In this document: positions 1 to 3,000 of the stretch, in pieces
Layout of the letters: every line of letters starts with the position of its first letter
How positions within the stretch are numbered: position 1 is the first letter of the stretch
NCBI GenBank assembly: GCA_037380845.1
Contig: JARRRI010000031.1
Location: forward strand, 1-31,799
Origin: Candidatus Sulfobium sp.
Lineage (GTDB): Bacteria; Nitrospirota; Thermodesulfovibrionia; Thermodesulfovibrionales; UBA6898
Reading direction: 5' to 3'
DNA: 31,799 bases
Made by a program: the position numbers

Positions 1-3000
1 ATCCCTGCCTTCACCTCTCTTTTTCGCAAAAATGCAAAAGGATTTGTAGGAATGCATAGGGTAAGTGAGAAAGAAGTGTGGAAAAACAAGCAGTTAGAGA
101 TGGCATGGATTCTGCAATCTGTATTTGCAACAGGACGAAAGGAGGAGAGGGAGATGAAAGAGAGATATTCAAAGAAACTTACTTACATGGGGGCTGGATG
201 CGGAGTGGTACTGTTTGCGATATTCGGACTGCTTCCGGGGTCGTTCCTGGGAGGGGTTATGGGACTCAACATAGCCGGAAGCCTGCTGGGGGTTCCGGTG
301 ACGGCGGGGATAGCCTCCAGACTGATAGTGGCCGCCTCGATGGTGGTAGGGGTGATGGTGTCGGGAATAATGTTTGTAACGGCCTTCTCCCTGATAGGCT
401 GGCTGGCAGGGACGGTGGTGGACGGCCTGAGGGCCGGGAAGAAAGAGATGGCGGCAGAACACAAATGAAGCAGGAATGCAGAAGGCAGAATTAAATACAA
501 AGCAGGAAGTAAAAAACCAAAAAAAGGAAAAGGAGGAAAGGGAAATGACGGACGACAGGAAAAATACGATGAAGGCGGGGACGAAGATAGGTGCGGCACT
601 GGGGGCGATAGTATTTCTGGTATTCGGGCTGGTGCCGGGCTTCTACTTCGGCAGCTACGGGACGGTGGTACTGCTCAGCAGGCTTGCGGGGGGGCCGGTG
701 GAGGCCACGACGATAGTAAGGATGCTCACGGTGGTGGGTATAGTGCTGGGGATCTTCTGCGTGGGGGCGGTCAGCATCGTACTGGGCTCCGTGTTCGGCA
801 CGAGCCTGGGGTATGCGGTGGACGTGGTCGGCAGCCTCGGCAAGGTGAAGAAGGCCGAGGAGGTGAAAATCCGCAGCTGAGTTTTTTGGTTACCTCCCCT
901 CGGGCCCCTGCACGGCAGGGGCCCTATTTGTTGGTTCTGTCATCCCTGCTCTATTTTCGTTTGATTAAAAAAATTTAATAATTTATGAAAATTTGTGATT
1001 GAGATCACATCCCTCGTCTGTGCTTTTTATTATTGTTGAATTGAGGATTGCTGAATCGAAAAATTCTTATTCCGGGGGGAAAAAATGTTTACGCCGAAGA
1101 AAATTATTTTGTCGTTATCATTTGCCTTCATTTTGTTATGGACAGCATCGGCTTTCGCGTTGGTTATAGGGGGGCCCGTTCTGAATATGCCGGAGGGGGG
1201 ATGGGACGACTTCGGACTGCTTATCCGTGCGGAAAGCGATGTAACTCTGGTGTCGGTCAGGTTTCCCAATCAGGGGCTTGCAGACGTCATCGAGTTGCGA
1301 AGCTACCCGGATTCAGCCCTGCTGGACAGCATCCCGGTGCCCGCCGGGGACACAAATGCCACCGTAAATATAAACTATCCTCTTAAGTCTCAGGAACTCT
1401 ACAGTCTGGTTGCTACCACTCCCGACAACAGATATTACGGTGATGCACAGGACACGTATGCATTTCCTGCGGGGAATGCCGACATAACAGTGCTCTCCTC
1501 CTTCTGTGAGAGCCCCTATCCTTACGCCTACTGGTTTTCCTTTAACGACATAGTGACCCAGCCCTATACCCCCGAACTGGGGGCCGTCATCGACATAAAG
1601 CCCGGCAGTGATGTAAACAGGATAAACCTGAAGTCAAGAGGAGTTGTGCCTGTGGCGGTACTAACTACGGATGATTTCAATGCAACAGATATTGACCCGC
1701 AGAGTGTTATATTTGCGGGCGCCTATGCGGTCAGGTGGCAGATAGAAGATGTTGACGGCGATGGGGATGACGACATCCTTTTCCATTTCAGGACCCAGGA
1801 CCTGAATATCGACGATTTTACAACCGCGGGGTTGACCGTTTCAGTGCCGGGCAGCGCGGCGGCTGTCCTTACCGGTGGCACTTTCGAGGGAATTCCCTTC
1901 TCCGGCTCGGATTCAGTTGACATCGTGCCGAAAAGATAGCTTTGTTATCCGGTCCTCGCAAGGGTGGAGGGGTGGGGCCTTAACGGCTCCCCCTTGCAGG
2001 ATATTCTGCACGGTCTGACCGGACAAGTGCACCACATAATAATTTCACTTTCCAAAAACCGTCAAAATCTGTAAATTACAATATCACTCAGGCATTATTT
2101 TTATACAATGACGACGAACAAATGTAATATTGACGCCGATCCGGAACTTTTCAGGGACCTCATTAACAAATCAAACGATTCCATCTTCGCATTCCCCACC
2201 CGGAAAAGAACCGGAAAGACCACCGCATATATATGACTTAGCGTTTAATTTATATAAACACATGACTGTTCAGGAGTGCAAGCTTATGGCGTTCAGGAAA
2301 TCCCGCAAAATTCGGTTAGGGCTGGCGGTCAAAAAAATTCAGGTCAACAGCCTGCGATGTTTTTTCAATCGGTGCGGTGAGGGCGCCGGAAGTCATGGTG
2401 GATATGGACATCCATATTCTTGTGATTGGCGACCTCAAGGGACTGCCCGGGGATACCGGCTGGGGTAAGGTGCCTACTCCAATCTTCTGATCTGTCAGCC
2501 CTGCAAAATAACTCTTGACATTCCTCCGGAACCGGACTATAAATGAATTAAGGAGTAGCCCACGATAAGTGGTGGTATTGCTCCTCTCAAAAAGCAGCAC
2601 AAGATTTTGGATTGCGGGACAATGGTTAAGACAAGGCAGCGTCTTAACCAAAAATCTTACAGACAAAATCGCTGAATATGAGAGGAGTAAACACCACTTT
2701 TTTTGTCTTGCAACCAATAATTTGTGAGGTGGAAACCTCATGGCACAAACGACAAGTTACTATCTGCCATCTGTTGCATAAGTTGGCAGCGTCCCCTATT
2801 CCGGCCCCTGTTTTACTTATACAATCTTAAAAATTCATCAACGGTCATGCGCGCCTTGTCTATCGCATCACTGAGCAATCCCTTTTTTATTGGCTTGCCC
2901 TTATGCACAGGGATTGACAGGATGTTTTTGTTCCCTTCCTTCGACAAGTGCACATGACTTCCCGTCCGTCTTTCAATTGTCCATCCTGCCCTTTGAAAAG

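Follow-up and report, generated by a model that had tools for sequence, protein, structure and literature searches.

Near the start of a 31,799-nt contig of Candidatus Sulfobium sp. lies an intergenic element that raises two questions: what kind of gene it is, and what it does. Throughout, we refer to this whole stretch of analysed DNA as the window. A genome-wide survey's note had proposed an unnamed structured RNA at this site, independently transcribed and acting in trans. We confirmed its place, with the promoter, the rod and a run of seven T residues (2698-2704) all where they had been reported (Table 1). The rod spans 2567-2699 and is closed by AAGTGGTG and CACCACTT. Transcription probably starts near position 2550, which would give a transcript of ~155 nt with a leader of 16-21 nt; the length had previously been put at about 140 nt. 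Folding of 2555-2705 gave -58.8 kcal/mol (z -7.9, with 0 of 200 shuffles as good), so that the strong fold stands while the earlier z of -9.1 for this copy came out lower. The window copy has no Rfam match beyond noise, as had been claimed.

The promoter of the window copy is the best-scoring site in the genome for the family promoter matrix. It was missing from the list of a consensus scanner because the family -10 often lacks the canonical last T. In the family promoters a conserved spacer word, AAnAGGnG, precedes the -10. The missing T and this word might mark a promoter class that is specific to a sigma paralog.

Table 1. Features of the RNA gene, its neighbourhood and related genes elsewhere in the genome (G000; positions are in the window unless a contig is named)
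Feature	Position	Strand	Basis or remark
Promoter	2505..2549	+	A/T-rich element, TTGACA 2515-2520, 17-nt spacer, TATAAA 2538-2543; predicted from sequence and family matrix
5' leader, purine-rich	2550..2566	+	Start site inferred from the -10 position
Closing arm, 5' strand	2567..2589	+	Consensus GUGGUG-GU-CUUGC-UCCUC; invariant columns and pair counts
Variable interior	2590..2678	+	Irregular rod with apical hairpin 2623-2650; 0 units above threshold in the window copy
Closing arm, 3' strand, and U-tract (long-range terminator)	2679..2704	+	Sequence, fold and pair counts
UXX-star glutaredoxin-like (seleno)protein gene stump: RBS and first codons	2726..2757	+	Matches the beginning of the intact 67-aa gene of G019 and G020
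Neighbouring island, outside the RNA	2813..4180	-	Four parts, listed below
hicA	2813-3043	-	Island
MerR-HicB: MerR-type DNA-binding domain fused to HicB-like antitoxin domain	3040-3681	-	Island; upstream of hicA
IS256-type fragment	about 3946-4070	+	Island
tRNA-Sec	4083-4180	-	Island
RpoD-like sigma factor	10980..12305	+	One of five in the genome
Further 6S-like RNA (L232)	C47, about 25886-26040	+	Own TTGACA promoter; shares closing stem and bubble with the second 6S class
6S 5' half with promoter (L234)	C22, about 49990-50070	-	Leads directly into the beginning of a reading frame
Possible small RNA (L233)	C51, about 29968-30120	+	Strong promoter like that of the family, short structured stretch, terminator

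We recovered all four copies reported for the genome. Their pairwise identity is 0.58-0.68, and on this ground we judge them to be old. The DNA search matches in 14 of 53 family genomes were reproduced, and a covariance model found the RNA in 43 of 54 family genomes, with up to about seven copies per genome. The same model gave matches in 22 of 121 genomes (5 of 13 families) in a sample of the order and in 3 of 150 genomes from the rest of the phylum, all three in the same order; because these searches scored just 19-54 candidates per genome, a miss should not be read as an absence. A second model, built from 22 repeat-rich copies, returned the same five families and five weak matches (E 0.006-0.04).

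The earlier evidence had two weaknesses: the query had included the promoter, and the alignment had been fitted to the model. We removed both. A promoter-free pattern consisting of the two rod ends alone found 86 stretches in GTDB species genomes, nearly all of them labelled Nitrospirota or Thermodesulfovibrionales. TTGACA occurs 41-62 nt upstream in 83 of the 88 distinct promoter-free matches (one of which is viral) versus 7% of random windows; the five matches without it were left out of later counts. All 83 sites in the family promoter matrix have TTGACA, with a spacer of 17. Held-out metagenome copies behave in the same way, with TTGACA upstream in 87 out of 90 and a fold in all 90. In a plain MAFFT alignment of 71 sequences, which was not fitted to the model, the share of paired cells is 89%, and two-sided changes occur in 29 of 46 pairs (shuffles 19.2, 0/500). 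Slid controls on this alignment gave 14-24 two-sided pairs and 37-53% paired cells, although we note that the tested structure was derived from the same sequences and is thereby favoured over its slid versions. The sense strand folds better than the antisense strand in 124 of 128 copies. Both the promoter and the covarying pairs thus outlasted the removal of these weaknesses. The description of a presumably expressed, independently transcribed, stand-alone, non-coding, structured and order-restricted RNA was strengthened by promoter, orientation, covariation and held-out copies. As far as sequence can, this confirms a real non-coding RNA gene family of one order, carried by bacteria of the sulfur cycle.

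It is highly improbable that the family is instead a non-autonomous mobile or purely DNA-level element. Its many copies in changing contexts, the island beside the window copy and the palindromic units described below, which could be operators, would suit such an element. However, same-genome copies share only the low identity given above, sister species keep orthologous copies at the same sites, the promoter lies outside the inverted ends, the fold prefers the sense strand, and a transposase or reverse transcriptase stands next to only 2 of 131 neighbours scanned. On viral contigs we detected no family member, one pattern match without a promoter and none for the repeat pattern.

The surroundings of the copies had been described as unrelated gene contexts, which is true in part. 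The nearest neighbours (131 scanned) scatter over many Pfam families, but a 6S paralog, other copies of the RNA and a UXX-star gene recur; copies of the RNA cluster with one another in 8 places. Clustering of small ORFs and neighbours revealed no constant protein partner. In two relatives (G019 and G020) an intact 67-aa UXX-star gene, which passes the NF041114 and NF041212 cut-offs, stands behind the orthologous RNA copy, and UXX-star relatives have Cys or TGA at the active site. In the window this gene is a stump, cut by the HicA/MerR-HicB island beside tRNA-Sec. Positions 1-880 of the window encode two tandem paralogous small membrane proteins with no family above cut-off, which are also found near the RNA at two other loci (L062, L073). 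A conserved 73-aa protein that belongs to no tested family is encoded just upstream of the RNA at four loci (L049, L064, L082, L095).

Comparison across the family revealed two features that the survey's note had lacked, a repeat array and a leader switch. The interior had been called an irregular rod. The rod stands, but divergent members show that the interior is also a tandem array of a semi-palindromic 14-15-nt unit, A-GUC-KYAR-GAY-GUAA, spaced at 14-15 or 29 nt. The unit has 241 sense matches, 22 reverse matches and ~9 in shuffles, with 0-6 units per copy. At least two units are present in 75 of 90 held-out copies, and no unit scores above threshold in 18 of 99 sequences, including the window copy. 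The latter is degenerate and has lost its recognisable units. The units are predicted to pair with each other, forming a rod of short helices and small loops. Apical loops are mostly G..A purine-rich or GNRA, and the position before GA is A (0.55) or G (0.33). We rejected the unit as a genome-wide operator or mRNA site, since the rest of this genome shows no excess of it (at 11 bits, 179 sites compared with 103-504 for column-shuffled matrices).

Such an array could make the RNA a multivalent, CsrB-like sponge in which each unit, or its small loops, binds one RNA-binding regulator while the closing arm merely protects and terminates. Candidate regulators are a single RRM protein, Hfq and cold-shock proteins; RRM and Hfq proteins are both present in the genome. 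The strand bias and the number of units, the form of the apical loops, an RRM protein in 22 of 22 RNA-bearing order genomes (87 of 121 overall) and an RRM gene as divergent neighbour at two loci all fit this reading, and PMC11697453 offers a precedent in RbpB with its 14 FopS sRNAs. We nevertheless consider it rather unlikely: CsrA was found in none of 54 family genomes and in 5 of the 22 RNA-bearing order genomes, copies can do without the unit, which shows no enrichment elsewhere, families that lack the RNA also commonly have RRM genes, and the link to 6S RNA described below is left unexplained.

The second feature concerns the leader. The full-length fold leaves it single-stranded (pairing probability 0.006). 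In the nascent RNA it is predicted to form a conserved alternative hairpin with the closing stem's 5' strand (-15.7 kcal/mol in the window copy). Leader-arm pairing has a mean of -12.6 kcal/mol in 125 copies compared with -8.0 kcal/mol for shuffled leaders. The hairpin is better than shuffles in 85 of 87 held-out copies, and at p<0.05 in 51 of 83 copies of the first set. Covariation for the switch is weak, because cognate leaders beat the leaders of other copies only slightly (71 of 125). The closing arm comprises ~20 pairs with invariant GUGGUG and UGC, and in subfamily II its 5' strand is better conserved than its partner.

A free leader is also what a base-pairing sRNA would have, with the leader, or an opened CUCCU anti-Shine-Dalgarno strand, as the seed for mRNA starts and Hfq on the U-tail. 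The presence of Hfq and the extra conservation of the arm's 5' strand in subfamily II suit this possibility, and FopS has a 5' seed and a terminator according to PMC11697453. We regard it as unlikely, given that leaders vary widely, that the top matches of the four local leaders among 2673 start regions of one genome form no common target class, and that the genome contains no long complement. Moreover, the anti-Shine-Dalgarno strand is buried in both predicted folds, and the 90-nt structured insert is unaccounted for.

Alignment of the flanks uncovered a second conserved RNA right behind the U-tract at several loci. At all seven loci tested, Rfam RF00013 identified it as 6S RNA, an inhibitor of RNA polymerase (31-49 bits). 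A 6S-like gene lies within the fetched flank at 10 of 86 genome loci (445 kb of flank). Among the 90 held-out metagenome copies, 12 have one nearby in 99 kb of flank, always on the same strand. Both rates stand against a background of 0-4 6S matches per 2-4 Mb genome. Because related loci are not independent, they represent fewer separate events. Among the 12 held-out cases, five are directly tandem and five have the 6S gene 78-94 nt behind the RNA; direct tandems occur in four genera. Most copies in the family stand alone, and none of the window genome's own four copies adjoins a 6S gene. The 6S gene had been set aside as a separate single gene (on C77), a view that has to be replaced: we found three 6S-like genes in the genome, and the family is strongly linked to 6S paralogs.

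The direct tandems differ from other copies in their terminators. Within the 9 nt after the stem, they have 4-6 T residues compared with a mean of 7.8 elsewhere, and five or fewer T residues were seen in 0 of 77 and 1 of 85 non-tandem copies. From these shortened U-tracts we infer read-through: they imply, as we read the sequences, a trace of transcription from the RNA's promoter into a 6S gene that has no promoter of its own.

One could accordingly view the RNA as a cis element, an attenuator or processing leader gating read-through into what follows, be it a 6S paralog or the UXX-star gene. The conserved, mutually exclusive leader hairpin, the short U-tracts before 6S and the UXX-star gene ≤40 nt away in G019 and G020 are in keeping with this. 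Yet about half of the copies face a convergent gene, tandem copies each retain their own promoter, downstream genes share no function, and there is no conserved leader peptide (6-97 codons), so that we hold a general cis role to be quite unlikely.

Our favoured reading, held tentatively, is that the RNA would act in trans as a protein decoy within the 6S/sigma-70 network, with the transcription machinery as its probable target. We favour it because of the 6S linkage, the shape of the RNA, the expanded sigma set of the lineage, the likeness of the arm to 6S and the precedent of RNA polymerase-binding RNAs other than 6S. A post hoc comparison showed a faint likeness between the two closing-arm strands and those of the apical '-35' arm of 6S; it is the 3' half that stands out (15 bits, 0 of 60 shuffles), whereas the likeness of the 5' half is not above shuffles (44 of 60). 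The stand-alone, strongly promoted RNA would bind a protein in trans and would not regulate its neighbour. It would share a regulatory cassette with an accessory 6S RNA in a lineage where both 6S RNAs and RpoD-like factors have multiplied. Its conserved closing arm and irregular duplex would form a promoter-DNA-like decoy for part of the sigma-70 machinery, and the target could be a sigma paralog, the core enzyme or the holoenzyme; unlike 6S, which binds the sigma-70 holoenzyme and templates pRNA, the RNA would not be a template. During synthesis, the leader hairpin would compete for the terminator strand and, with a shortened U-tract, would allow run-on into the promoter-less 6S gene.

Several observations weigh against the decoy. 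The RNA has no 6S-type central bubble and no match to the 6S model, the window genome's copies are apart from 6S genes, cognate leaders hardly beat foreign ones, and a repeat number that varies between copies suits a multivalent sponge more readily than a single enzyme target. The correlation with sigma number, considered below, vanishes with genome size. Of the earlier label of a trans-acting sRNA, we retain trans action as likely, through either mRNA pairing or protein binding.

The 6S link can also be read as antagonism, in that the leader would pair with a conserved loop, GGUG(A/U)GC, in the '-35' arm of 6S and thereby free or exclude RNA polymerase. A heptamer complementary to the loop occurs in 45 of 105 subfamily-I leaders (shuffles 0.4), while the exact complement of the RNA's own arm occurs in none; the complementarity was replicated in 40 of 87 held-out leaders. 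In addition, 48 of 105 leaders outdo 95% of random start-region triples in pairing with the 6S of this genome, and the 6S loop is predicted to be mostly open. But same-genome covariation is lacking (the cognate 6S is better in 28 of 75), none of 23 subfamily-II leaders fits, the leader of the window copy is not complementary, and whole-RNA duplexes with the tandem 6S are not above shuffles in 7 pairs. Pairing with the own arm is stronger on average (-14.8 vs -12.4) and, given the likeness of the arm to the 6S motif, can explain much of the signal. We therefore think an anti-6S role improbable.

We examined the 6S genes and sigma factors among which a decoy would act. In addition to the three 6S-like genes, the genome carries a fourth, divergent one with an altered apical arm. 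This fourth gene, L232, was missed by Rfam; its apical arm lacks the GGUGAGCA motif, and its RNA could be a decoy for another sigma paralog. The family has three 6S classes (L114, L115, L116-L160), the second with a conserved 3' tail beginning CUGGAGCCAUA that may be another RNA element. Five RpoD-like sigma factors are encoded in the 3.2-Mb genome, one in the window and the others on C4, C15, C25 and C54. A unit-like word ~50 nt before the window's sigma gene is within chance. Region-1.2 matches number 0-6 per family genome and up to 7 in the order. At least three sigma factors were found in 16 of 22 RNA-bearing genomes of the order compared with 11 of the 99 others. A link between copy number and sigma number was rejected, as it disappeared once genome size was taken into account (p 0.56; partial rho 0.24, p 0.08); the counts were cleared of antisense duplicates.

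These genes could belong to an order-wide RNA control panel, a picture that we consider doubtful. In it, several RpoD-like factors and 6S paralogs with different '-35' arms would be regulated by the RNA family, through decoys specific to sigma paralogs or as an antisense RNA that silences one 6S and supplies another from the same transcript.

We found no description of this RNA family in the open-access literature searched, although motif lists in the supplements of comparative-genomics papers could hold one. It represents an uncatalogued family of a new build, with a switchable leader, a conserved closing arm and a variable repeat array. Its genomic tie to 6S was replicated in the held-out set and suggests an extra RNA layer over transcription control. 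In the literature examined, 6S is present as a single gene or as two, and the RNA polymerase-binding RNAs known besides it come from lineages without 6S. Several 6S paralogs and RpoD-like factors in one lineage, with a companion RNA made in the same transcript as one 6S, would allow tests of how decoy RNAs discriminate between sigma factors and of whether 6S is itself under the control of another RNA.

We compared the family to known RNA classes. Type I toxin-antitoxin RNAs (Sib/Ibs, aapA) resemble the new RNA in being multi-copy and intergenic, with 5'-3' pairing and a metastable 5' hairpin. This class was rejected, as the ORF from the conserved GUG varies from 6 to 97 codons (125 copies) and an antisense promoter is present in 3 of 125; no shared small ORF was found on either strand. 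A riboswitch or attenuator of a regulon was rejected on the orientation of downstream genes (42:39 in genomes, 14:20 in held-out copies) and their scattered functions, and a MITE or non-autonomous insertion sequence on copy divergence and retention at orthologous sites. We rejected Y RNA on finding no Ro60/TROVE match in this genome, in a search whose control gave a match in 2 of 14. For ANTAR proteins, whose RNA targets are twin hexaloop hairpins, this genome gave no match, but the control gave none anywhere.

The CsrB/RsmZ RNAs share a variable number of short repeats with the new RNA, and some units contain CAGGAUG, which we take to be like the CsrB repeat. They differ in that about half of our units read AAGA, the array lies inside a long closing stem and no CsrA was detected in the family. 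A CsrA sponge was rejected on the distribution of CsrA given above, and the position before GA does not hold to the repeated loop GGA; there is no Rfam Csr/Rsm match. FopS/RbpB resembles our system in its multi-copy paralogous sRNAs with own promoters, a single-stranded 5' end and a terminator, and in the RRM protein, which all sampled carriers of the new RNA possess. According to PMC11697453, FopS carries a single conserved 5' seed and its terminator is simple, in contrast to the varying leader and long rod body here.

Among all classes, 6S RNA (SsrS, RF00013) bears most directly on the linkage. Both RNAs are rods of similar size with small inner loops, a 5'-3' closing stem and a sigma-70-type promoter, and the new RNA is physically linked to, and apparently co-transcribed with, a 6S paralog and faintly resembles its apical-arm strands. 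The new RNA differs in its free leader with the alternative hairpin, its repeat array, its copy number and the absence of a central bubble. Its largest inner loops are mostly 3x3 to 6x6, and predicted folds leave 7.2 nt open per 14-nt window in 128 copies compared with 9.5 in 61 6S RNAs of the lineage. RF00013 has no match at E<=10 in the window copy or at E<=5 at the loci of other copies. The '-35'-arm-like words in the closing arm pair in another register (15-19 bits vs null maxima of 14-19). A circularly permuted 6S found no support, since its match (18.8 bits, 0 of 60 shuffles) is not in the predicted register. PMC8876501 treats the large central bubble, flanked by two arms, as the feature on which 6S function rests. 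For Firmicutes, PMC8414754 gives one or two 6S genes per genome.

Ms1 and CoRP of actinobacteria are RNA polymerase-binding decoys other than 6S (PMC11077062; PMC9130861). They are lineage-specific RNAs that escape 6S searches, as does the new RNA, for which polymerase binding is suggested by analogy. They differ in length (about 300 and 516 nt) and in coming from lineages without 6S, whereas several 6S copies are present here. The new RNA may work like a decoy of the 6S/Ms1 type or a sponge of the CsrB type.
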